Positions 4,353 to 40,476 of a stretch of 64,000 nucleotides of DNA are shown here, in pieces. Origin of the DNA: a virus. Every line of letters starts with the position of its first letter. The first letter of the stretch is position 1. The stretch is taken from IMG/VR virus record IMGVR_UViG_3300049016_000019, positions 238 through 64,237 of that record; one strand, 5' to 3'. The notes under the pieces are model-generated. The model searched no databases. It worked only from the letters and a program-made list of their open reading frames with translations, and was not told where the DNA came from. The position numbers and the translations under genes are program-made.

Positions 4353-4379
4353 GTTCATTTCAACTTTCTCGCGCGCATG

Positions 4380-4630
4380 CGCAGTAAGAGATAGAGAGAA
4401 TAAGTGTCACTATTGTCATATCTACAGTTCAGGGTACTTATGACAGCTTTTAGATCATTGTCGTGAGTGTCCTGAAGCGATACAGAGAGTGCACGCTCAG
4501 TGACTCGGTCACTCTCCGCACATACTGTCGTGAGTGATGTCGTGAGTAAGTCGCGAGTACTGACCTGCATTTATGACACATGAATCTCTCAGGACGAGAG
4601 AGAGAGAGGGAGGCGCTTTCCCCCCGCCTC
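4380..4630. promoter_or_regulatory. Putative replication origin (iteron-like)
   Basis: Noncoding, AT-richer, directly downstream of helicase; TGTCGTGAGT at 4459, 4526, 4538, near-match at 4550; AGTGAC-TCG-GTCACT palindrome 4499-4513. Confidence 0.55.
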
Positions 4631-4634
4631 ACCG

Positions 4635-5858
4635 TTACTCTCTGTGATTCAGAGGGTGTGTCCATACTGTCCCCGCTTGGGCCTCTCGTACCCTTTTGGA
4701 CTTGACCCCTAGCCTCTTCCTTGCACGCTGCAACATTCGTTCACTAAACTTCTTCCCGGCTTCCTTTATGTCCGCGCAGCGCGCTTCTCCACCCTGGGCG
4801 AGTAGGAACTGGTCCAGCCATCGAACGCAATCGTCTATGTTCGAGTGGCCGCCGTCCTGAAGATCGCCAAGCACGTCGGAGGCACGATCCATGATCTCTT
4901 CCAGCCATTCGATACGGGGCATGTGCGTGTACGTACCGTCGTCACACGGTATCTCTACGGAGTTGAGCCGAAATCGCAACGAGGGCAACAGATGCATCTG
5001 CCCGACGTTCAGCTTCTCGCACGACAGGATGCGCGCGTCGTCCTCCTCGGGGTCCATGACGAGCCCATGTACGGACCGCGCGACGTTGGTCTGCTCACTG
5101 GAGCCGATGACGGCCTCTATCACGTCCCGCGCGTCGGCCTTGCGGGTGTGCGCCAGTCCGAATATGGAGGAGTTCGTCCGCTCGGCGATGCCGTTCACGA
5201 TTTGATACGTGTGTCTGATCTCCCGCTGGTCGTTCGCCTTGCCGCTGACATTCGCGCTCAGCGGGTCCACGAAAGTAACCGCGATATTGTGCTCGCGAAT
5301 AAAGTCGGCGAGCCGCTGTTCATCGTGCGGCAGGCTCAGCGCATCCTTGCCTAGGGGCGTGTGTACGGTCAGGAAGAACACCCGAGAAAGGTCAGCGCCG
5401 TGGGCCAGCAAACGAGGAACAACAGTTTCTTCTATCGAGTCCTCATTTACCACGTAGCACACGTTCCGGGGCGCCCCGTAGAACTCCCCTTTCATGTCCC
5501 CTATGGTGATCCATGCGGCGAATTGCGCGAAGAGGGTGGATTTGGAAACGGCCCCTTTCCCGGCGAGAAGGGAGAGGCCGCCCAATGGTACTCTATCACG
5601 CCATAGCCATTTGGTACGACGCGTTTGGATGCTATCCGCACGAATAGCCCGGAATTGCCGAAGCGATTCCTCTTCCTCTTTCGCTATTTCCTCACCCTGT
5701 TTGCGAATACGCACCTTACGCGCTTCGCTTTTCGCCAATGCCTTGTCGTTGGCGAATTCCATGTTCTTTTGGAAGGCTTCCGCGAAAACCTCAGTACCCG
5801 GATAGGGCTTCCCCGACTCCTGTACCCAATCCGGTTGCTGAAAAGGGTAGGTCATCAC
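4635..5858 (-). CDS. AAA_25/RepA-like replicative helicase-ATPase with C-terminal winged-helix-like end
   Basis: WLWRDRVPLGGLSLLAGKGAVSKST (variant Walker A), VTFVDP Walker B, LAHTRK...IGS. Confidence 0.8.
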   Translation of the reverse strand: MMTYPFQQPDWVQESGKPYPGTEVFAEAFQKNMEFANDKALAKSEARKVRIRKQGEEIAKEEEESLRQFRAIRADSIQTRRTKWLWRDRVPLGGLSLLAGKGAVSKSTLFAQFAAWITIGDMKGEFYGAPRNVCYVVNEDSIEETVVPRLLAHGADLSRVFFLTVHTPLGKDALSLPHDEQRLADFIREHNIAVTFVDPLSANVSGKANDQREIRHTYQIVNGIAERTNSSIFGLAHTRKADARDVIEAVIGSSEQTNVARSVHGLVMDPEEDDARILSCEKLNVGQMHLLPSLRFRLNSVEIPCDDGTYTHMPRIEWLEEIMDRASDVLGDLQDGGHSNIDDCVRWLDQFLLAQGGEARCADIKEAGKKFSERMLQRARKRLGVKSKRVREAQAGTVWTHPLNHRE

Positions 5859-12478: not shown

Positions 12479-12964
12479 CTAGGGACACTGTCCCCTTGAT
12501 ATTTCAGGTTGCGGGTGCACGATGCGGGTGATGCGCGTACCTGCGATGATCTTCAAGCATCCGTCGCACGGCTTGTCGGTGACATACAGCGTGGCCCCGT
12601 CCAGGCGGGAGCGGTCCGCGTACAGCAGCGCGTTCAGCTCGGCATGGCAGGCTATGCAGGCCCCCTTGCCGGTGTCGTACGAGGAGTCCGGCTCCACGGC
12701 ATCGGGACAGGGCCACCATTTCCCGCAGGCACACACGTCGGGGCCGCTATCTCCGGGCCGCCGGTAGTGCTGCCCCCGTGGGCACTCGCCCCGTAGGCAC
12801 GACGGCCCACCGGGCGGCGATCCGTTGTACCCGGTCGAGGCGACGCGGTTTTCGGTGTCCAGGATGACGGCCCCGACCTTGCGGCGGGTGCAGTCGGCGC
12901 GAGTCGCCACGGCGTTGGCGAGGTTCAGCGCCCAGTCATCCCATGAGGGGCGGTCAGTCATCAA
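12479..12964 (-). CDS. dCMP deaminase (ComEB-like)
   Basis: RADCTRRKVGAVI...TGYNG...CHAELNA...YVTDKPCDGCLK. Confidence 0.9.
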   Translation of the reverse strand: MMTDRPSWDDWALNLANAVATRADCTRRKVGAVILDTENRVASTGYNGSPPGGPSCLRGECPRGQHYRRPGDSGPDVCACGKWWPCPDAVEPDSSYDTGKGACIACHAELNALLYADRSRLDGATLYVTDKPCDGCLKIIAGTRITRIVHPQPEISRGQCP

Positions 12965-16732: not shown

Positions 16733-17021
16733 CTTCTACGTGACCCGGCCCTTCCAGGAAATGCCCCCCGCGATCATCGACTATCTGATCACGCAGTTCG
16801 TTGGCGATCTTGGAGATCTCCTCGAACGTGCGCTGTGCCTGATGGGCGTACCCGGCGGCCCTAGACGCGGGGTCGGGATTGCCCGCGTACTGCTTCACGA
16901 CTCCACGCCACTCGTTCAGCACGTCTCGCGTGTAGTTGTAGCGGTCCATCAGATCGGGCATGCTCTCGATAGCTTGCCGAACGGCGCGGGCGCGTACGTC
17001 CCAAAGCTCGGGGTGGTCCAT
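16725..17021 (-). CDS. Hypothetical helical protein
   Basis: TGATG overlap with prim-pol stop. Confidence 0.5.
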   Translation of the reverse strand: MDHPELWDVRARAVRQAIESMPDLMDRYNYTRDVLNEWRGVVKQYAGNPDPASRAAGYAHQAQRTFEEISKIANELRDQIVDDRGGHFLEGPGHVEDA

Positions 17022-17926
17022 CAATCTTCCTTCGCGCTCTGGAGCCGGTATGCCGAGCGAATCGTCGCCTCGGCCTGTCTGTATCCTCCACGCCCATTGC
17101 ACTCGACGTACGCGGGGGCGAGGAGATCTGCTGCCTCTTCTGCCGTGGCCCCGTCGCTGCACATCGCACGGGCCGCCCATAGAAGGGAGTTGTTCAGGTT
17201 GCCGTCTATCGCATAGCGAACGGTGTCAACGAGCCCTGAGTAGTTCCCCGTTCCGGCGCGTGCGGGCTGCTGGAACGGGGGTATGTGGAGCCGCTGTTCG
17301 CGGGCGGGTGCGGGCTTGTCCATCACGGCCTGGATCAGGAACGAGGGAGCGGGCTTGACGGCCGCGTTCCGCTCCACCAGGTACGGCCCGTTGGGGGTCT
17401 GGGCGCCAGCCGCTAGGACGTAGCCCCCCGACGTGCCGCCGTTGCATCGCACGTCCAGTACGCCCTTGACGATGGACGCCTGCGATGAGCGGATGTCCGG
17501 CGGCCACGCGTAGTACAGGTGTAGCCCCCCTCTGGTCGTACGGACGCTGTACGTGTCCTGTAGTTCCGTGTAGCTGTACCCCGCCGAACTACACATATCT
17601 TTGAGTATCCAGGTGCCGTCTACTCGGGGACCCAGCTCGTCATGCAGGTAGGCGTAAGCGGTGTCCTTGAGTAGCCAGTCCTCTTTGGGTATGTCGCAGT
17701 CCATGACCAGTAGCCCCGAGGGCTTGCAGGCTATGGCCGGGTTGTACATGGGGTTACGTGTCCACCATGCCACGATGCGACTAAGGTCATTGGTTGCCGC
17801 CTGCGCCCAGCGGATGCGCCAGTCCTGCCCAGGGCGTATCAACGCCCCCTGCTTCTCGCCGGGTTCGCACGGGAAGATGTGGAAGCCCCGCTGCTGGGCA
17901 TGGAGAGCGAAGGGGAGCAAGCTCAT
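17021..17926 (-). CDS. Bifunctional DNA primase/polymerase (prim-pol) with PriCT-like C-terminus
   Basis: GFHIFPCEPGEK...N.AIAC..GLLVMDCD...VRTTRGGLHLYY...LDVR..GYVLA. Confidence 0.9.
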   Translation of the reverse strand: MSLLPFALHAQQRGFHIFPCEPGEKQGALIRPGQDWRIRWAQAATNDLSRIVAWWTRNPMYNPAIACKPSGLLVMDCDIPKEDWLLKDTAYAYLHDELGPRVDGTWILKDMCSSAGYSYTELQDTYSVRTTRGGLHLYYAWPPDIRSSQASIVKGVLDVRCNGGTSGGYVLAAGAQTPNGPYLVERNAAVKPAPSFLIQAVMDKPAPAREQRLHIPPFQQPARAGTGNYSGLVDTVRYAIDGNLNNSLLWAARAMCSDGATAEEAADLLAPAYVECNGRGGYRQAEATIRSAYRLQSAKED

Positions 17927-18708: not shown

Positions 18709-19353
18709 TTACGCGGGGAAGGAAGCGGCGATGAGCTGTGCCTGATCGGGAGCCATGGCCTGGACCTGCTCCCGAGGAAGGCCCTTACTGACCAGGAACT
18801 CGACCAGTGCGGGGGGCGGGCCAGCGGAAGGGGCTGCCTGCACGGGAGGCCCGGCCGGGGTGCCGTAGCCAGCGACCGACGGGGCGCCGTTACCGTTGCT
18901 AGGGAGCGAACCCCACCCACTGGTGGTGGCGGGGGCAGGCGGGCCGCTCTGGGGGACGGCGGAAGGCTGTGCGGGGGCGTTGCGCGGGTGCGCGTTGATG
19001 TACTGCATGGCCTGAGCGGCCTCTTGCTCCGTGTAGTCGGCCAGCATCCAGGGCGTACCCTTACCGGTCGGTGCTCCCTGGATCAGTCTGCCGAGGACCA
19101 TCTCGTTGAGGCGAGACTTCGTCTGGCGGACCAGGACGCCGGGAAAGATCATCGTGTTCTTGAGGACCTGCGGACCGCCCGGCGCATCCAGGACGATGAT
19201 GTCAGCCTCGACGCCGTCGCGCTCGCCAAAGTTCTGCGTCTGGATGTTGGCCTTGTACGCGGTCGGGTAGATCAGCAGAAGCCTACCCAGATGGGTGGCT
19301 GCCTCGAACTTGTCGCCTACGGAGTTGTCAGGCTGTGAGAAGGGGTGAGACAC
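18709..19353 (-). CDS. Putative ssDNA-binding/recombination protein
   Basis: GRLLLIYP...VEADIIVLD...IF...VLGRL...PWML core with P/A/G-rich tail; lies in the exonuclease-containing recombination block. Confidence 0.5.
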   Translation of the reverse strand: MSHPFSQPDNSVGDKFEAATHLGRLLLIYPTAYKANIQTQNFGERDGVEADIIVLDAPGGPQVLKNTMIFPGVLVRQTKSRLNEMVLGRLIQGAPTGKGTPWMLADYTEQEAAQAMQYINAHPRNAPAQPSAVPQSGPPAPATTSGWGSLPSNGNGAPSVAGYGTPAGPPVQAAPSAGPPPALVEFLVSKGLPREQVQAMAPDQAQLIAASFPA

Positions 19354-19355
19354 CG

Positions 19356-19538
19356 TCAGTCCTTAGCTGTTGTGGTGAGTTCCGACTGCAACTGCCGTAC
19401 CTCTGTCGCGAGGTAGCGGCGATGTCCGCCGAGAGTCCGGACGATGGTGAGCGAGCCCCGATCCGCCCAGCGGGACACCGTCTTAACGTCTACGCGGAAC
19501 GCTGCGGCGACCTCTTTGGGCGTCATTAGTTCTTCCAT
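19356..19538 (-). CDS. bldC-like: BldC-like MerR-type HTH protein
   Basis: LMTPKEVAAAFRVDVKTVSRWADRGSLTIVRTLGGHRRY closely matches the remembered Streptomyces BldC core. Confidence 0.85.
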   Translation of the reverse strand: MEELMTPKEVAAAFRVDVKTVSRWADRGSLTIVRTLGGHRRYLATEVRQLQSELTTTAKD

Positions 19539-20296
19539 CGTATTCCACCTCCCTTGGACTTGGACATGGTGCGACTGTATCGATTTGCGGTCTGCGGTAT
19601 ATGTCTTGAAGTGATGCGGCCAGCGGCCCACGCTATCGAGACGGCATGAGGGATGCTGAAAGCGCCGAACGCTTCGCAGATCTTGTTGTAGCGAGGAGTG
19701 TTGGGGCGGGGTACGTAACACTGACCGGAAACGATCAGCTTGAGATCAGCGACGGCCGCACGGACGCGATTCGACTGACGCGTGACCATTTTACCCCTGA
19801 CCTTATCAGGCTGGATAGCCCCCCGCTTCAATCCCTGGGCGATGACCTCGGGGGTGGTGTGCACCCCGTACTTGATGCGGGTTAGATGCATCTGCATGTC
19901 TACCGAACGATGGGAGAGGTGGATGACGTTGGCGATTTCGTACCGACTGTAGCCATCGGCGAACATCTGCATGATCATGAAATCCTGCGGGTTCGGCCGG
20001 TACTGGAGTCGGATGCCGGGGGGGACCTTGATCCCGTTCTTCTCGCGGATGCGCTCGCGTCGGTAAGAAGTGATTTTGATAGGGCCCATCCACTCCAACT
20101 GCGTAACTGCGGCCCGCTCGGCGGCCTTGCGTACACGCTCCGCCTTACGGTAGCCCTTCTCTCTGGCCAGGGCGCAGGGCCTACAAGAGCGAACCTTCCT
20201 GCCGCTAGGCGTGACGTGCCAGCGCTGATTGACTGGATCATCCAAATTATGGGGGCCCTCCCCGAACTGACACATAGTCTGCCTAGCCCTTGCCAT
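19526..20296 (-). CDS. LuxR-type HTH regulator with N-terminal Zn-like module and degenerate second HTH
   Basis: IMQMFADGYSRYEIANVIHLSHRSVDMQM...YGV.....IAQGLKRGAI; second copy ending AVSIAWAAGRI. Confidence 0.7.
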   Translation of the reverse strand: MARARQTMCQFGEGPHNLDDPVNQRWHVTPSGRKVRSCRPCALAREKGYRKAERVRKAAERAAVTQLEWMGPIKITSYRRERIREKNGIKVPPGIRLQYRPNPQDFMIMQMFADGYSRYEIANVIHLSHRSVDMQMHLTRIKYGVHTTPEVIAQGLKRGAIQPDKVRGKMVTRQSNRVRAAVADLKLIVSGQCYVPRPNTPRYNKICEAFGAFSIPHAVSIAWAAGRITSRHIPQTANRYSRTMSKSKGGGIRWKN

Positions 20297-21476
20297 TGCA
20301 CCCCCTCTCCATCGTCTTGTCGCCGGGCGCGTGGAACGGACAGAACTTGCAGTCGTCAGCGACAGCGAACGGGCGAGCCGCCTCTATGCCGGACTGGTCT
20401 CGTAGTTGCTCGGCGATGCGATCCACTCGGGCGAGCGCGTCGAGTGCCACTGACGCATCGTAGGGTTCCGTCCAGACGTAAAGGTCGTCCAGATTGGCCT
20501 TTTCCCTAGGCCATCCCACGATGGCGACGTGGTCCACCGACTCCCCTCGCAAGCGCGCACCAAGCCCATACATGTGGACCTGAATACGATACGTGGCAGA
20601 CGGACCCTTGATACGTAGACGCTCCAAGGACCAGCCTCCCATGCACTTATGGTCCAGAAACATGCACAGGGTTCGGTCCAGCAGATCCCCGGTACCCTTT
20701 GGAACTGTGGCAGACGCGAAGGTGAGGGGCATCTCGGTAGCAAACCGGCCGGTTCCGGCGTCAGCCCACTGGAACATCTCCGCCAGACCAGCATGGATGC
20801 AAGTGCCCACGAACGAGGCCCAGTTATCGCCTCCGGGGTTGACGGGCGCCACGCGCAACAACGACATTGCGAGTCGCCTGTCACACGGTGTTCCAATCTC
20901 ACTAGGTCCCAGGGTGGTTTGCTGATTACGCGCCAATCGGTTCGAGTACGCATGGAACATCTCCCGGAAGCGCCCGGCGATCTGATTGCCTAGGTCTGAC
21001 ATAGGCACAGATTGCGGGGCGGGGCGCTGCGAAGGGGCGGGCTGGCTGAACGGCCAGTCAGGTTGACTCAGACTCCCACCGAGCGGCCTTCTCAAGGGCT
21101 TGAGCGTAGTCATCGATGCCGGGGAGGGCGAGGTTACATCCGCAGTCTGCACACCCGCACTCGGGGCAGCACTCGTGACACTCACAGTCTTGTTCGGGCA
21201 TTGCGGATCTCCGAATTTCCTTACGTGCGGACCTAGCTCACCACTGGGCAGTATGCGGACGTTCCTACCGCATTCGGAACACGTTCCGAAGTCTCTACCC
21301 TCGACCGGAACGTTTGGATCTTCCTCGTTGGCGGGGCCTTTAGCGATCTGATGGGCCGGGATGAACTCGCCCGCTCCTACACACTCCTGGCCGTCCTGCG
21401 TGTGCTTGCGGAAGCGCATGGCCTTGGTGGCGGTCACGTGCTTGTGACAGTGCGGGCACAGATACTTGTCAGCCAC
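20283..21476 (-). CDS. Cas4/RecB-like PD-(D/E)XK exonuclease with N-terminal Zn fingers
   Basis: SEIGTPCDRR...GTCIH...GTGD...LDHK...QVHMYG...CKFCPF...C. Confidence 0.85.
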   Translation of the reverse strand: MADKYLCPHCHKHVTATKAMRFRKHTQDGQECVGAGEFIPAHQIAKGPANEEDPNVPVEGRDFGTCSECGRNVRILPSGELGPHVRKFGDPQCPNKTVSVTSAAPSAGVQTADVTSPSPASMTTLKPLRRPLGGSLSQPDWPFSQPAPSQRPAPQSVPMSDLGNQIAGRFREMFHAYSNRLARNQQTTLGPSEIGTPCDRRLAMSLLRVAPVNPGGDNWASFVGTCIHAGLAEMFQWADAGTGRFATEMPLTFASATVPKGTGDLLDRTLCMFLDHKCMGGWSLERLRIKGPSATYRIQVHMYGLGARLRGESVDHVAIVGWPREKANLDDLYVWTEPYDASVALDALARVDRIAEQLRDQSGIEAARPFAVADDCKFCPFHAPGDKTMERGCNGKG

Positions 21477-21616: not shown

Positions 21617-22006
21617 TTACCCATTGGCGGGAGGGTGACGCAAGTAGGCAGCCGCGCGAATGAAGAACTCGGGATCGTCGCGCCCGTGGCCCAGCATGGA
21701 ATTGCAGGGGCGGCACAGTAGCCCCCTCACCTTGCCGGTCGCGTGATCGTGGTCTACGGACAGACGGCGCGTAGCCCCAGTGGCTCGCAAGCAGATAGCG
21801 CACTTTCCGCCCTGGAACAAGTACAGCGCTTCATATCCACCCTCGCCCAAGCCGTACGTTTTCTGGACGCGCGTCTCATGGTTGGCTTTCTGGCGACGCT
21901 TCAGTTCCGCTCGCCAGTGTGTCGCGCATCTCGGTCCCGGATGCGGTGCGGGGCGGGGCCTGTTCTTGGACATCGGCGGGCAGTCCTTGCAGGTCTTTCT
22001 TTTCAT
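21617..22006 (-). CDS. Recombination endonuclease VII (Holliday junction resolvase)
   Basis: YGL..GYEALYLFQGGKCAIC...LSVDHDHATGKVRGLLCRPCNSMLG. Confidence 0.9.
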   Translation of the reverse strand: MKRKTCKDCPPMSKNRPRPAPHPGPRCATHWRAELKRRQKANHETRVQKTYGLGEGGYEALYLFQGGKCAICLRATGATRRLSVDHDHATGKVRGLLCRPCNSMLGHGRDDPEFFIRAAAYLRHPPANG

Positions 22007-24836: not shown

Positions 24837-25397
24837 GTGGTGAAGGAGAGAGCTTCAACAGTGACCCCGGCCACGACAGCCAGGGTTTGTACTAAGATCA
24901 TCTTAGGCGACACGTCCGGTACGGCTTACCAGTACCCCCCGAACCCAACTGCCCAGGAAAGCCAGTTGGGGAATATATGGGTTGCAGCGTCTCGCGCGCT
25001 TGCTGCGTCAACGCTGCTTGATTCACTGGGCCTAGCGGGTCCTCCGCCTCTCGCCCTGTGTGCTAGGCGGGTCACCCTCCGAGGCTTAGCTACCTGCACA
25101 TTGTCCGGTGATCTAGCGACCGGCACCTTAGATGCTCTTGTCAATGATCTCTGTCCGGTATGCCCGGTTCCTTCTATGACTCAATCGTGCGCCTGATTTG
25201 CGTGTGACGCAAGCCCTACTGCGGGGTAAGTTCTCATGATTCTTTGTCGTCAACTCAGGCTTGCGGTAGGCACAGCGCGCCACGCGGGCGGCAAACATGC
25301 ACCTCGGGGGCGTTTGACCCTTGACGTAACGGTTACGCGGGCCGCATGGTGAAACCGGAGCTTGACAAATCGGACAAAGGAGTGTGAGGTGTACTAA
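24837..25397. promoter_or_regulatory. Divergent control (immunity) region with palindromes and rightward promoter
   Basis: Palindromes at 24892-24906, 25198-25212, 25325-25337; TTGACG-N18-CATGGT (25321-25350) upstream of the repressor. Confidence 0.6.
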
Positions 25398-25799
25398 ATG
25401 GATCAGGCGAATCGAGACGCAACGTTTGCTCGATGGCTGGACCTGACCATGGAAAACAGGGGAATATCTGGCCGTGGCCTTGCAAAGCGCATCAGGGTTC
25501 ACGACTCGGCAGTTAGTCGCTGGCGCTCAGGGGAACAGGGTCCAAGCCTCGACACTGTTATGCGGATCGCCCGCGCACTGAACGTTGATGGCATCAGACT
25601 CGCCGTAACGGCGGGACTGCTAAGCAGCGAAGAGGCCGGACGCCTACCGCTCCCCATGCCCGAGCCGACAGCACGCCGGAAGTCGATCAAGAGGCAGATC
25701 GCCCGCATCCGAGGACTGACGGATCAGGAGAAGCAACACCTCATGGAAGCCTATGACGAGCGGATAGCTCAAGATACGCAAGGGGAGATAGGAGCATAA
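25398..25799 (+). CDS. XRE-family HTH immunity repressor
   Basis: FARWL...GISGRGLAKRI.V..SAVSRW.SG..GPS..T..RIARAL; one of only two credible plus-strand genes. Confidence 0.85.
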   Translation: MDQANRDATFARWLDLTMENRGISGRGLAKRIRVHDSAVSRWRSGEQGPSLDTVMRIARALNVDGIRLAVTAGLLSSEEAGRLPLPMPEPTARRKSIKRQIARIRGLTDQEKQHLMEAYDERIAQDTQGEIGA

Positions 25800-36132: not shown

Positions 36133-39100
36133 TTAGCCGCGCCTCCCTACTTTTTGCTGAAGCATCATGCGAAGCTTCGGAACGAGTTCACTCTCAAGGC
36201 GCTTGACTGCGTCCTGATCCATATTGCCCTGCACGGTGATAGGCAGGCTGAGATTCACTGCGCCGCAGTCATGATCACGACCCTCGTACTTGGCGTCGTT
36301 CCACGGTTTCGTCTCGCCGCCGCGCTGCCAACGACGATCGTGCTCATAACCCTTGTCGCCATGCGGCCACACCTTCTCGCCGCCACGGAAGCGCACCATC
36401 TCAGGCCCACGCTCACCGACCATGTGCCAGCCTCGCGTAGCTCCAGGCGTGCCCAGAGCGTACGGAGAGCCAGGCACGTTGCCGCCATACCGAGCCTGAA
36501 TGTAGTTCGCCGCCGCCACCATGTTGGCCAGCGGGTCGAGAATGTTGTTCGGCAGCGACGGGTCACGGTACGCCGCGAACGTCGGCGGAATGACCTGCAT
36601 CAGACCCTGAGACGGGATACCCGCCGCAGCGTTGCTGTCCGTCCGGTTGATGGCGTTCGGGTTACCGCCGGACTCTGCCGCCATCAGCGCCAGGAACGCG
36701 GGAAGCTGACTTGCCGACAGGCCAGCGATCTGGAGCGCCTGAGCGGCCAATGCAGACCACGCCTGAACGGACTGGGCACCGGCAACGGGCGCCGAGACGG
36801 CGGCCATTGCTTCGGCCTGCTTCTCCTTGTCCTTATTGATCAAGAAGTCGATAGTGCCCTGGACAGCCTTCTTGCCCATGCCGACCATGATCTTGCCAAA
36901 GTTGCCAGCACCGATATCCAAATTGCCGAGAAGCTTGAACGCCCAGTCAAACGCTTCCTTGAACGGGCCAGCACCGATCAGGCCCAGCAGCATTTTGCCT
37001 AGGCCCTTGAGGTTGCCGCCGGGGATGATAGCGCCCAGGACACCGCCGATGGCCATGTTCAGGGCGTCGCCCAGGTTGTCGCCAGGGGTGAGGTCGGGGC
37101 CGAAGTCAGGACCGATGCCCGTACCGAACAGGCCGCCGCCGTCATCGTCGCCGATGTTGAGTTCCAGCACTCCCGCGAACGCCTGGCTCAGACTCTTGCC
37201 CTGGGCGATGTCCGACAGAATCTTACCGATCTTCTTCAGGATCGGCTGAAGGAGACTCAGGATTCCGCCACCACCACCGCCGCCCACGCCGAGGCCCGTG
37301 CCACCCGCCTTGAAGCTCGCCACCTGAGCGGCGGCGGCCGGGGACAGGTCCGGGTGGGACATCAGAACGGCGTGAATGTGCGGAGACATGCCCTGCTCAG
37401 GACCGCGCATCCATGCCGCGAAACCGGCGTTGATCAGCGCTTGCAGATACGCCGCATTCGGAACGATGTCGATCACGCCGCCACGGTCATGCGTGCCCGC
37501 ACTAGCCGCCACGCCCGGGTTGTACTCCGGCTGAATGATCGCACTGGCCGGGACTCCCGCACGCGCAAGAGCGGCAAGAGTGATGCCGCCCATGGCGAAC
37601 GACTGGAGAGTTGAATTCAGGCCGCCCGGGACAACGCCACCTTCGGCATACCGCTGCATACCAGCGTTATTGCCCTTGCGGTCCCGTCCGTGACTCCTCT
37701 TGTTCCAGCGCCTGTTGCGCCATCCGCCTGTCGGGCCACCCTTTCGGCCCGCCCGACCCTTGCTGTAGTGGTAGTTGGCGGAATGGACAAAGCCGGGACC
37801 GCCAAGTCCCTTGACAGCTTCGGGAACCAGGACGCCCTCGCCCGGAGACAGGACCGCAGGAACACGATCCTTACCGGGAGCATAGCCCGGCACCGTACCA
37901 CCGTGAGCGAAGGCCACGGGCGGCTTGCCCGCGATACCGCCGTACTCGAACCCGATGACACCACCCTCGGCCAGAGCCGGGATGGCTGAGATGCTAACGT
38001 TGATGTTCAGGAAGTCGGCGACCTTATTAAAGCCGCCAGTAACCTTGTTGATGAACCCAATGACAGCATTGATTGCAGCCTTGATGACGCTCTTGATCTT
38101 TTCCCAGATATCACTAGCGATATCCCTGACGGCGTTCCAGCCATTCGACCAGGACGTACGGAAAGCTGCGATGAAGGCGTTCCAAGTATCCTGAACGCCC
38201 TTCGTGAAGGCATTCCACAAACCTCTGATCGCGGTCCAGACAGTATCCGCAACGTTCTTGACGAAATTCCAGCCGTTGGACCAGGACGTACGGAAGGCAG
38301 CAATGAAGGCATTCCAAATGTTCTGGATCGCTTGAGTGAAAGCAGTCCAAGCTGCCTTCAACGCGTTCCAGATTGTCTCGGCTGCCGTTTTGACAAAGTT
38401 CCAGCCGTTCTGCCAGGACGTACGGAAGGCCGCTATGAACGTGTTCCAGATGTTCTGAACTGCCGTCACGAATGCCTGCCATGCGGCTTGCAATGCAGTC
38501 CAGATAGCCCTTGCTGCGGTGCTGACAGCGTTCCAGGCCGCGTTCCAGGCCGCCGAGAAGGCGGACGAGAAGGTGCTCCAGGCTGTCTGCATGGCGGTCA
38601 TGAACGCCTGCCAAGCGACTTGCAGTGCAGTCCAGATAGCCCTTGCTGCCGTACTCAGAGCGTTCCAGACGGCGTTCCAGGCCGCCGACAGAGCCCCCGA
38701 TACAGCTGTCCAGATGGTCTGAAGAGCCGTAATAAAAGCGTTCCAGGCAACCTGCATAGCTGTCCAAATAGCCTGAGCCGAAACTCGCATGGCGTTCCAA
38801 ACAGCGTTCCAGGCGGCGGACAGGGCGGAACTAACGGTAACCCAAACGACCTGAAGGGCCATGATGAAAGCGCTCCACGCTACCTGCATGCCCGTCCAGA
38901 TCGTACGGGCGACCGTAGCTATGGCGTTCCAGACAGCGTTCCAGGCTGTAACCAGGGCCGTAGACACAGTAGTCCAGACGAGCTGAAGTGCCATGATGAA
39001 GGCACTCCAGGCTACCTGCATCCCTGTCCAGATCGTCCTAGCTACAAGGGCTATGGCGTTCCAGACAGCGTTCCAGGCCGTAACTAGGGCCGTGGACACG

Positions 39101-40476
39101 GTAGTCCAGACGAGCTGAAGCGCCATGATGAACGCTTGCCATCCGACCTGCATGGCCGTCCAGACGAAACGCGCCACTGCGAGCATGGCGTTCCAGATGG
39201 TACTCCAGTTCAGCGCGAGGAGAGCGAGCACGCCGATCGGCCCCATGAGCAGAAGCGTAAGCTGCCCCAGACCTTGTGTCAGGAAGTTCCACACGGCCAT
39301 GGCGACCGTCTTGATGAAGTTCCAGGCGTAGGTCCAAGCGGTCTGAAACCACGTGGTCTTCGTGGCGATCAGGACGATAGCAGTCACCAGAGCCGCGATC
39401 GCGATAACGATAACGCCTATCGGAGAAGCTGCGAACACAAAGTTCAAAACAGCCCAAGCCAACCTGAGTTGCGTCACCGCGATCGTCACGAGTCGAATGA
39501 CCAGCAAGCCTAGGATCGCAGCCTTCCAGGCCACGAACCCTATGACGATCGCCTGAATCCAGCCCGGCGGAAGTGCGGCCACGATGCGCAGGAGCGTTGT
39601 CGCCAGCCCGAGAGACAGCGGCCCCAGGCCAGACATAGCCCTGAGCACGTTCCCCAGGGCCGCAACGAGCGCCTTGAAGAACTCCCTTACTGGGCCAGAG
39701 CTTTCCTTTACCTTCTCCAAGAATCTGGCAAATCCCCCGCCTTCAGCCCACGCTCGCATCGCTGCTGCGCCGTCGCGAAGGGATTTGGACACACTTACGC
39801 TCAACGGGAGGAAGGTGCGGAACCCTATCCCTAGTGTCGCTAGAACGTCCCTGCCTGCCGCAATCAGGTTGCGGAGCGCGGGCACACCGAACTTGATCAC
39901 GTTGTCGATGAATCGCTGGAATCCGTTGTCGCGCCCCATCCATGACCGGAAAGCCTCTGCCACCTTGAGGATTTCAGGATGCACCGCCCTGACGAGCGGA
40001 GTCATCTTGCCTAGGCCGGTAGTCAGTCCCTGGACCGCCACCGTGGCAGTCTTGAGCGTCATGCCCTCGGTTGACTTAATGAAGCCGGTCCAGGCGCTTT
40101 TCATGCCGTTGACGCTACGCACGAACGTCGTCTGGACAGGGCTCAACTTCTGTCCGGCTTTGGCCATTTCGAGAGTGCGCTCAATGGCACCCTTGGCAGC
40201 CAGGCCGTAGGCCCCAAGCGCCGCACCGGTCGTGACGGCCATGGCCGCCGACGCCGCGCCAACTCCCGCAAGAGCGGTGCTGATTGGAATCAGGGCGGGA
40301 GTCAACGCGACGGCGGCAGTGATAAGCGGCTGGAACCTAGCGGCAGTTGCGATCAGAGCTTTCTCGTTGCGCTCAAGAGTAGTGCTCAGGTCGTTGATGT
40401 CGCGACGAGCAGCACGCACGCCTGCGGCGTTGTAGTGGCTGAAGATGTTAAAGCCGAGGCTGGTGATCGTAGCCAC
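36133..40476 (-). CDS. Tape measure protein with C-terminal lytic transglycosylase (SLT)
   Basis: 1447 aa, W-rich 11/22-residue periodic repeats; AESGGNPNAIN..QGLMQVI..ILDPLANMVAAANY. Confidence 0.95.
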   Translation of the reverse strand: MATITSLGFNIFSHYNAAGVRAARRDINDLSTTLERNEKALIATAARFQPLITAAVALTPALIPISTALAGVGAASAAMAVTTGAALGAYGLAAKGAIERTLEMAKAGQKLSPVQTTFVRSVNGMKSAWTGFIKSTEGMTLKTATVAVQGLTTGLGKMTPLVRAVHPEILKVAEAFRSWMGRDNGFQRFIDNVIKFGVPALRNLIAAGRDVLATLGIGFRTFLPLSVSVSKSLRDGAAAMRAWAEGGGFARFLEKVKESSGPVREFFKALVAALGNVLRAMSGLGPLSLGLATTLLRIVAALPPGWIQAIVIGFVAWKAAILGLLVIRLVTIAVTQLRLAWAVLNFVFAASPIGVIVIAIAALVTAIVLIATKTTWFQTAWTYAWNFIKTVAMAVWNFLTQGLGQLTLLLMGPIGVLALLALNWSTIWNAMLAVARFVWTAMQVGWQAFIMALQLVWTTVSTALVTAWNAVWNAIALVARTIWTGMQVAWSAFIMALQLVWTTVSTALVTAWNAVWNAIATVARTIWTGMQVAWSAFIMALQVVWVTVSSALSAAWNAVWNAMRVSAQAIWTAMQVAWNAFITALQTIWTAVSGALSAAWNAVWNALSTAARAIWTALQVAWQAFMTAMQTAWSTFSSAFSAAWNAAWNAVSTAARAIWTALQAAWQAFVTAVQNIWNTFIAAFRTSWQNGWNFVKTAAETIWNALKAAWTAFTQAIQNIWNAFIAAFRTSWSNGWNFVKNVADTVWTAIRGLWNAFTKGVQDTWNAFIAAFRTSWSNGWNAVRDIASDIWEKIKSVIKAAINAVIGFINKVTGGFNKVADFLNINVSISAIPALAEGGVIGFEYGGIAGKPPVAFAHGGTVPGYAPGKDRVPAVLSPGEGVLVPEAVKGLGGPGFVHSANYHYSKGRAGRKGGPTGGWRNRRWNKRSHGRDRKGNNAGMQRYAEGGVVPGGLNSTLQSFAMGGITLAALARAGVPASAIIQPEYNPGVAASAGTHDRGGVIDIVPNAAYLQALINAGFAAWMRGPEQGMSPHIHAVLMSHPDLSPAAAAQVASFKAGGTGLGVGGGGGGGILSLLQPILKKIGKILSDIAQGKSLSQAFAGVLELNIGDDDGGGLFGTGIGPDFGPDLTPGDNLGDALNMAIGGVLGAIIPGGNLKGLGKMLLGLIGAGPFKEAFDWAFKLLGNLDIGAGNFGKIMVGMGKKAVQGTIDFLINKDKEKQAEAMAAVSAPVAGAQSVQAWSALAAQALQIAGLSASQLPAFLALMAAESGGNPNAINRTDSNAAAGIPSQGLMQVIPPTFAAYRDPSLPNNILDPLANMVAAANYIQARYGGNVPGSPYALGTPGATRGWHMVGERGPEMVRFRGGEKVWPHGDKGYEHDRRWQRGGETKPWNDAKYEGRDHDCGAVNLSLPITVQGNMDQDAVKRLESELVPKLRMMLQQKVGRRG

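Follow-up and report, generated by a model that had tools for sequence, protein, structure and literature searches.

BldC is a well-studied brake on the development of Streptomyces, and its unusual mode of DNA binding has been solved. Among the genes that it represses are whiI, smeA, whiD and sigF; some others are activated, and the protein delays the onset of development (PMC6428758). The Streptomyces protein (PDB 6AMA and 6AMK; NF033787; PMC5859096, PMC6428758) consists of a single MerR-like winged helix-turn-helix (HTH) domain that reads AATT-N4-C units in 9-bp phase (PMC5859096). Arg30 makes the YpG contact, His46, Arg47 and Arg48 are the residues of the wing, and the head-to-tail interface sets Phe21, Val23 and Trp31 against Leu11, Ile40, Thr42, Leu43 and Gly44, to which an Arg22–Glu16 pair is added (PMC5859096). 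In solution BldC is monomeric, and it loads head to tail, with cooperativity, on 9-bp direct repeats. Development in Streptomyces also helps to contain infection by phages (PMC10117723).

Host-type regulators of the WhiB and Lsr2 types are carried by actinophages at lineage-specific syntenic positions, and several independent acquisitions have been proposed (PMC8612146). The same survey of actinobacteriophages reports 'MerR' domains in more than 10% of the phages and does not mention BldC (PMC8612146). The WhiB and Lsr2 proteins of phages resemble the protein described here, P0001, in being host-type global regulators on actinophages but belong to other protein families. Gp36 of D29 and L5 and the Xis of Pukovnik are, like P0001, small phage winged HTH proteins, which act cooperatively on direct repeats; in the lytic phage D29, Gp36 acts as a regulator of phage genes via direct repeats rich in GC (PMC12266134). 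The repeats that Gp36 recognises are GC-rich (GCGGC), whereas the BldC residues for AT-rich, minor-groove reading are kept in P0001, and L5 gp36 gives no match to NF033787 (HTH_BldC). Among cultured phages, the best matches to P0001 are MerR-like HTH proteins of Microbacterium cluster EE phages, such as Naby gp25, and the Xis of the Gordonia phage EricDab, with 42–54% identity. They remain below the NF033787 cut-off of 77 bits (63 bits for Naby gp25 and 59.6 bits for EricDab Xis), and the EricDab xis gene adjoins an integrase and a repressor.

Literature searches returned no paper dealing with a BldC encoded by a phage, and P0001 is a member of the BldC family in a phage setting not described in the literature searched. 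Among 50,697 deposited phage records, only MT836007.1 matches BldC at a minimum of 60% identity over the whole domain. This unverified scaffold from human faeces, deposited as 'Bacteriophage sp.', carries a canonical BldC (103.8 bits) beside an alpha/beta-hydrolase-like gene and, because its neighbour genes look cellular, is probably a bacterial fragment and not a phage. In IMG/VR, 173 uncultured viral contigs carry a BldC signature, some of them being provirus calls that may include host flanks. More distant relatives occur in Mycobacterium phages (Luke, HH92 and others, H110–H116), whose Cro-annotated proteins are 43% identical to canonical BldC; this resemblance points to a lytic-switch role of remote BldC relatives in temperate mycobacteriophages.

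The stretch of DNA analysed here (the window, 64,000 nucleotides) corresponds to bases 238–64237 of a 67,057-bp IMG/VR virus record from an uncultured actinomycete phage, for which CheckV gives a completeness of 100%. The minus strand carries almost all genes of the phage, and the BldC-family gene is present in a single copy (Table 1).

Table 1. Coordinates of the BldC-family gene, its neighbours and its syntenic anchors (positions in the window)
Feature	Position	Strand	Basis or remark
BldC-family gene, P0001 (60 aa + stop)	19356-19538	-	Translation, NF033787, 6ama/6amk, AF2, Foldseek
Shine-Dalgarno-like site AAGGGAGGTGG	19545-19555	-	Ends 9 nt upstream of the ATG at 19538; read from sequence
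Upstream gene, 256 aa, weak LuxR/GerE-type HTH	19526-20296	-	ORF list; GerE; phrog_3282
Downstream gene, 214 aa, phrog_870	18709-19353	-	phrog_870 E 4.9e-25; start 2 nt past the BldC-family stop
Cas4/RecB-like exonuclease, syntenic anchor upstream of the slot	20283-21476	-	phrog_1674 E 8e-53
Endonuclease VII, syntenic anchor	21617-22006	-	Pfam PF02945 E 2.5e-27
Primase-polymerase, syntenic anchor downstream	17021-17926	-	Pfam PF09250 E 2.3e-26
Cro/CI-type HTH gene, opposite orientation	25398-25799	+	Pfam HTH_3 E 1.8e-10

The 60-aa reading of the gene competes with a 121-aa ORF that starts from a GTG at 19721. The shorter one is preferred because of its strong ribosome site and because three metagenomic relatives (P0002, P0046 and P0047, 92–98% identity to P0001) are each 60 aa long. 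This translation contains FRVDVKTVSRW and RTLGGHRRY, so that the motifs quoted in the original prediction are present exactly in the 60-aa minus-strand product. The gene is tightly packed in an operon, as indicated by the overlap with the upstream stop and by the short gap to the downstream gene. The TAA of the 256-aa upstream gene falls 13 nt inside the BldC-family ORF, and translational coupling is therefore likely. The product of this upstream gene has a Cys-rich N-terminus and gives only marginal matches, with E 0.0038 for Pfam GerE, which does not reach the cut-off, and E 8e-4 for phrog_3282 ('sigma factor'). A scan for promoters and terminators between 16.5 and 26.5 kb performed no better than chance.

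Membership of P0001 in the BldC family is secure, as judged from profile comparisons and from its predicted structure. The protein scores 88.9 bits on NF033787, against a curated cut-off of 77, and its close relatives score 86.6–88.9 bits; cellular BldC proteins typically reach 94–104 bits, P0001 being lower. Its best solved relatives are BldC chains (PDB 6ama/6amk, E 1.1e-16). The near-canonical BldC homologue that had been announced from the sequence is thus what these comparisons return, and the BldC core given on that occasion (RVDPKTVTRW...RTLGGHRRY) agrees with the alignment to 6ama/6amk. The Pfam domains HTH_17, MerR and MerR_1 span residues 4–51. The AlphaFold (AF2) model, with a mean pLDDT of 93, comprises only alpha1-alpha2-beta1-beta2-alpha3, and these elements lie at the BldC positions with a 7-residue shift when compared with the topology given in PMC5859096. 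When this predicted model was submitted to Foldseek, the 6ama/6amk chains took ranks 1–7 (TM 0.77–0.90, rmsd 0.7–1.1 Å, 62–65% identity), lower ranks being held by RacA, SoxR and other MerR proteins, and by the Xis of Pukovnik at rank 22 with 26% identity. A classical MerR regulator is ruled out, since P0001 is a single MerR-type winged HTH that stops at residue 60, after alpha3, without coiled-coil dimerisation or effector domain.

P0001 and Streptomyces BldC therefore share the architecture of a single MerR-like winged HTH domain, as well as their topology and approximate size; identity extends to 33 of 51 core residues, and the fold predicted for P0001 lies within about 1 Å of that of BldC. 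They differ in that P0001 is without the approximately 7-residue N-terminal tail, has a different C-terminal helix that is longer in the prediction, carries the changes P25V, T29S, K33D and I40V, and is encoded by a phage, within a replication/recombination operon. The residues that matter for binding can be compared one by one, BldC residue n being P0001 residue n-7 and the roles being those assigned by Schumacher et al. 2018 (PMC5859096). P0001 is identical at 16 of the 20 BldC residues that touch DNA or the neighbouring protomer, and keeps (BldC numbering) K26, R30, H46, R47, R48, L11, E16, F21, R22, V23, W31, T42, L43 and G44. All the base- or groove-reading residues are thereby retained (K26, R30, H46, R47 and R48, which are K19, R23, H39, R40 and R41 of P0001), as are nine of the ten residues of the head-to-tail interface, the tenth being changed by I40V. 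One of these nine, Leu43, is charged or polar in classical MerR proteins. Four of the 20 contact residues are changed: A15K, at a backbone contact; K33D, by which one phosphate contact is lost; T29S; and I40V. Val or Phe at position 40 is found in the BldC proteins of syntenic phages and is rare in cellular ones. As the conserved residues are shared family-wide, including in non-sporulating actinomycetes, they indicate the binding mode and not the target.

The gene does not look like a fresh acquisition. P0001 is 65% identical to Streptomyces BldC and 59–71% identical to the best 80 matches from bacterial genomes. A match is present in 251 of the 301 sampled genomes of the class (a tally that includes three unpublished genomes, G024, G036 and G249, used for no other result, and extends to non-sporulating actinomycetes), and its identity is at most 73%. 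A Haloactinospora protein reaches 80%, over part of its length. Because of the distance to Streptomyces BldC and to the sampled actinomycete genomes, P0001 is, on sequence identity, not a recent capture of a host bldC but a long-resident gene of the phage lineage. Phylogeny was discarded as a guide to the donor or host, since the 55-column tree gives no supported sister and P0001 is 60–73% identical to nearly every sampled actinomycete BldC.

Five IMG/VR phages (loci L094, L100, L149, L150 and L153, in G306, G307, G308, G309 and G310, respectively) have a BldC-family gene at the corresponding position, after the Cas4-like exonuclease gene and among homologues of the endonuclease VII, phrog_870 and primase-polymerase genes, these flanks being partial or complete depending on the relative. 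Their BldC proteins score 92–99 bits on NF033787, all above the cut-off, and their large terminase subunits (TerL) are 52–66% identical to that of this phage, a similarity that equals or exceeds the one to any cultured phage (55%). The exonuclease is 52–61% identical to those of the relatives and 47% to that of the Streptomyces phage Dagobah; the corresponding values are 53–71% for endonuclease VII among the relatives and, for the primase-polymerase, 51–52% with L094 and L100 and 44% with Dagobah. Homologues of phrog_870 adjoin the exonuclease gene in Dagobah, L094 and L150/L153; in Dagobah the two genes are direct neighbours and no BldC gene separates them. The divergence from this phage is similar for the BldC proteins (55–67% identity) and for the flanking phage proteins (51–71%), which fits inheritance of the gene with the module. 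A single origin of the syntenic phage BldC proteins is not rejected by the AU test (p 0.19) and does not appear in the best tree. The five related loci contain no homologue of the 256-aa upstream gene, so that a conserved LuxR–BldC pair was rejected and, on this comparison, the upstream gene seems to have been inserted there later. No close relative was returned by a metagenome scan and a first viral scan in which P0001 served as single query, and megablast of 6 kb against phages gave no match. Globally, sequence and gene order place the phage in a lineage of 60–72 kb actinomycete phages in which the BldC-family gene is part of the replication/recombination block. A small terminase was rejected, as the gene lies 30 kb away from TerL.

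The host is probably a Streptomyces-like mycelial actinomycete, given the similarity of the endolysin and replication genes to those of Streptomyces phages: the catalytic half of the endolysin is 57–70% identical to endolysins of Streptomyces griseus phages, and the replication genes have their best matches in Dagobah, a phage of S. coelicolor. An argument against such a host is that TerL is closest, among cultured phages, to those of Rhodococcus phages (55%).

By homology, P0001 would bind DNA as BldC does, its protomers arranged head to tail on phased AT-rich 9-bp direct repeats, with the Arg and Lys of the recognition helix reading the major groove and the His/Arg/Arg of the wing inserted where the minor groove is narrowed. 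Bending and coating of the DNA would repress or remodel promoters. The tight packing between neighbouring genes suggests that the protein is probably made along with early or middle replication genes. Its substrate would most likely be host DNA at BldC sites, to which P0001 would bind by itself or within filaments shared with host BldC, thereby helping to hold the infected hypha in its vegetative, non-sporulating state. The reading of P0001 as a BldC-like DNA binder and not an excisionase, acting most likely on host BldC sites so as to reinforce the vegetative state, is given a probability of roughly 0.5 on the basis of the sequence comparisons and the structural model.

Host DNA is favoured as target because the phage contains no BldC-type arrays and because all the base- and groove-reading residues match those of host BldC; with these sequence arguments, it would be preferred only slightly ahead of a phage-directed role. 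Nine identical interface residues, with I40V as the tenth, make mixed contacts with host BldC sterically credible, and it is plausible from sequence that P0001 joins or disrupts host BldC filaments, as the original prediction had envisaged. The more specific proposal that P0001 co-assembles with host BldC on whiI, smeA, whiD, sigF and other targets, as a brake that would keep infected hyphae vegetative and defeat sporulation-linked containment, is tentative and rather doubtful in this detail. A delay of sporulation would be relevant only for an actinomycete host that sporulates, as deduced from the endolysin and replication genes, and in a fast lytic cycle developmental control may matter little. 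If such co-assembly on host promoters is true, BldC would join WhiB and Lsr2 as the third type of global host regulator that actinophages have taken over, and action on host BldC sites would link infection directly to developmental timing in antibiotic-producing bacteria. If P0001 acts on phage DNA, a filament-forming regulator would have been reused by a virus. Either target could easily be tested, since BldC assays, operators and mutants already exist.

The search for BldC-type operators in the phage genome bears directly on the choice between these targets. The genome contains 37 AATT tetramers. The pattern AATT-N5-AATT, with up to one mismatch, gives 2 matches against 3.9 expected, and TGTCCGAWTT, with up to two mismatches, gives 62 matches against 67 expected. 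Windows with 2, 3 and 4 phased 9-bp units number 3, 4 and 9, respectively, for simulated means of 0.9–2.3 and maxima of 3, 5 and 9. Cognate AATT-N4-C direct-repeat operators are thus not enriched in the phage genome, and neither phased pairs nor phased arrays of them exceed expectation there. A depletion of AATTNNNNC (16 occurrences against 54 expected) was set aside as an effect of trinucleotide and codon composition, the observed/expected ratio of AATT being 0.87 under a second-order model. As BldC tolerates degenerate sites and recognises them in part by the shape of the DNA, missing arrays do not exclude phage targets; furthermore, operator arrays are a feature of the regulon and not of the protein, so that their absence from the phage is no bar to family membership.

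A role on phage DNA, in which P0001 would set early, middle or late promoters or organise the origin or terminal repeats, is possible, without being the likelier choice. By analogy, its nearest functional precedent is D29 Gp36, an Xis-like protein of a lytic phage that acts on direct repeats in its own genome (PMC12266134). Such a role would agree with the location of the gene within the replication/recombination block, at a position kept across the lineage, with the Cro annotation of the distant mycobacteriophage relatives, and with several repeat-rich non-coding tracts. At the left end of the genome, bases 80–244 of the record hold eight copies of the 13-bp unit TTAGGGTCCCATA, four of them head to tail, the last one entering the window at positions 1–7. 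Within positions 1–560 of the window, this array of iterons is followed by a tract of about 400 bp with 34% GC, dense in short repeats of 4-, 13- and 21-bp period, and the whole is a candidate packaging or origin region. This AT-rich end was rejected as a platform for BldC, since its dominant period is 13 bp and not 9, which is unfit for the geometry of a BldC filament; no 9-bp-phased AT-rich array exists anywhere in the phage. The intergenic region 4358–4635 contains three copies of ACTCACGACA, two of them in tandem (repeats at 4459–4545), together with repeated TGTCATAA/GACA motifs, and has the appearance of an operator or promoter serving the genes on its left.

Also in line with a phage-directed role, the non-coding region 24913–25398 (485 bp) holds one exact whiI-type unit, AAATCGGACA, at 25367–25376, where about 0.1 such matches would be expected per genome. 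This unit overlaps a TTGACA hexamer and adjoins the ribosome site upstream of the Cro/CI-type gene, but it stands alone, and in the five relatives boxes of the AAATCGGACA type do not exceed the control level. A Cro-type lytic switch was rejected as well: the BldC-family gene is neither adjacent to nor divergent from the Cro/CI-type gene, and lies deep in the replication operon, approximately 5.4–5.9 kb from this repressor-like gene and thus out of the Cro position.

Dominant-negative phage copies of host regulators exist, for example the WhiB of TM4. P0001 could likewise antagonise host BldC, either by capping or poisoning its filaments or by competing for its sites without repressing, which would leave the BldC targets de-repressed. 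The conserved interface residues would allow the heterotypic contacts that this requires, and the stability of the filament could be altered by K33D, by the absence of the N-terminal tail and by the divergent C-terminal helix. However, the two head-to-tail faces are both preserved, so that extension of the chain is more to be expected than capping, and the DNA-reading residues are all kept; an antagonist is therefore unlikely, and reinforcement of host BldC remains the preferred reading.

The last alternative is an excisionase or recombination directionality factor serving an integrase. The 'excise' domain TIGR01764 matches P0001 with 29.9 bits for a cut-off of 28.8, phrog_66 ('excisionase and transcriptional regulator') with an E value of 5e-8, and relatives of P0001 are named 'excisionase family' by JGI. 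The TIGR01764 match is, however, common to named cellular BldC proteins and therefore does not discriminate Xis from BldC. In the tree (136 sequences including P0001 and three near-copies, 55 columns), the Xis-type outgroups fall outside 131 BldC-type rows that include P0001 (SH-aLRT 86), nothing finer being resolved. The original prediction had reported no integrase in view, had seen no support for an excisionase, and had proposed beforehand a phylogeny against the BldC and Xis families, naming a grouping with Xis proteins together with an integrase elsewhere in the genome as the contrary outcome. P0001 falls within the BldC set, and its absence of an integrase partner extends from the window to the whole 67,057-bp record, where a six-frame HMM search gave no match at E<=1 for the tyrosine integrase PF00589, for PF00239, for PF07508 or for rve (PF00665), and found no ParA, ParB or DDE (rve) transposase. 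Neither the Xis grouping nor the integrase was found, and both statements of the original prediction stand.

The relatives add evidence in both directions. Two of them (G306 and G307) are classed as proviruses, and G308 encodes a large serine recombinase; the distance between the recombinase gene and the BldC gene is about 52 kb in the linear record and would shrink to about 10 kb in a circularly permuted genome. In contrast, the complete relatives G309 and G310 give no match to PF00589 or PF07508, and in the present phage the Cro/CI-type gene is the only lysogeny-like gene found. As relatives with and without an integrase both carry the BldC gene, this gene is kept regardless of the presence of an integrase. 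With a complete record devoid of integrases of any class and a BldC-family gene that sits in the replication block, the excisionase reading can, as far as the sequence goes, practically be dismissed for this genome.

Several minor observations concern other genes of the phage and other members of the family. The phage encodes a dCMP/cytidine deaminase at 12479–12964 (PF00383, E 6e-19). A 132-bp tandem repeat of about 8 units (73–79% matches) occupies 38135–39197, inside a 1447-aa gene (36133–40476) whose product is probably the tape measure protein. Among metagenomic proteins (P0056–P0110), many consist of two to five tandem BldC-like domains, and one protein of 623 aa has eight; such proteins may represent the head-to-tail filament in a covalently joined form. 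Lastly, Streptosporangium sp. (G001, locus L011) shows 19 BldC-like matches, compared with one to a few in most sampled actinomycetes, and is a case of large expansion of BldC paralogues.
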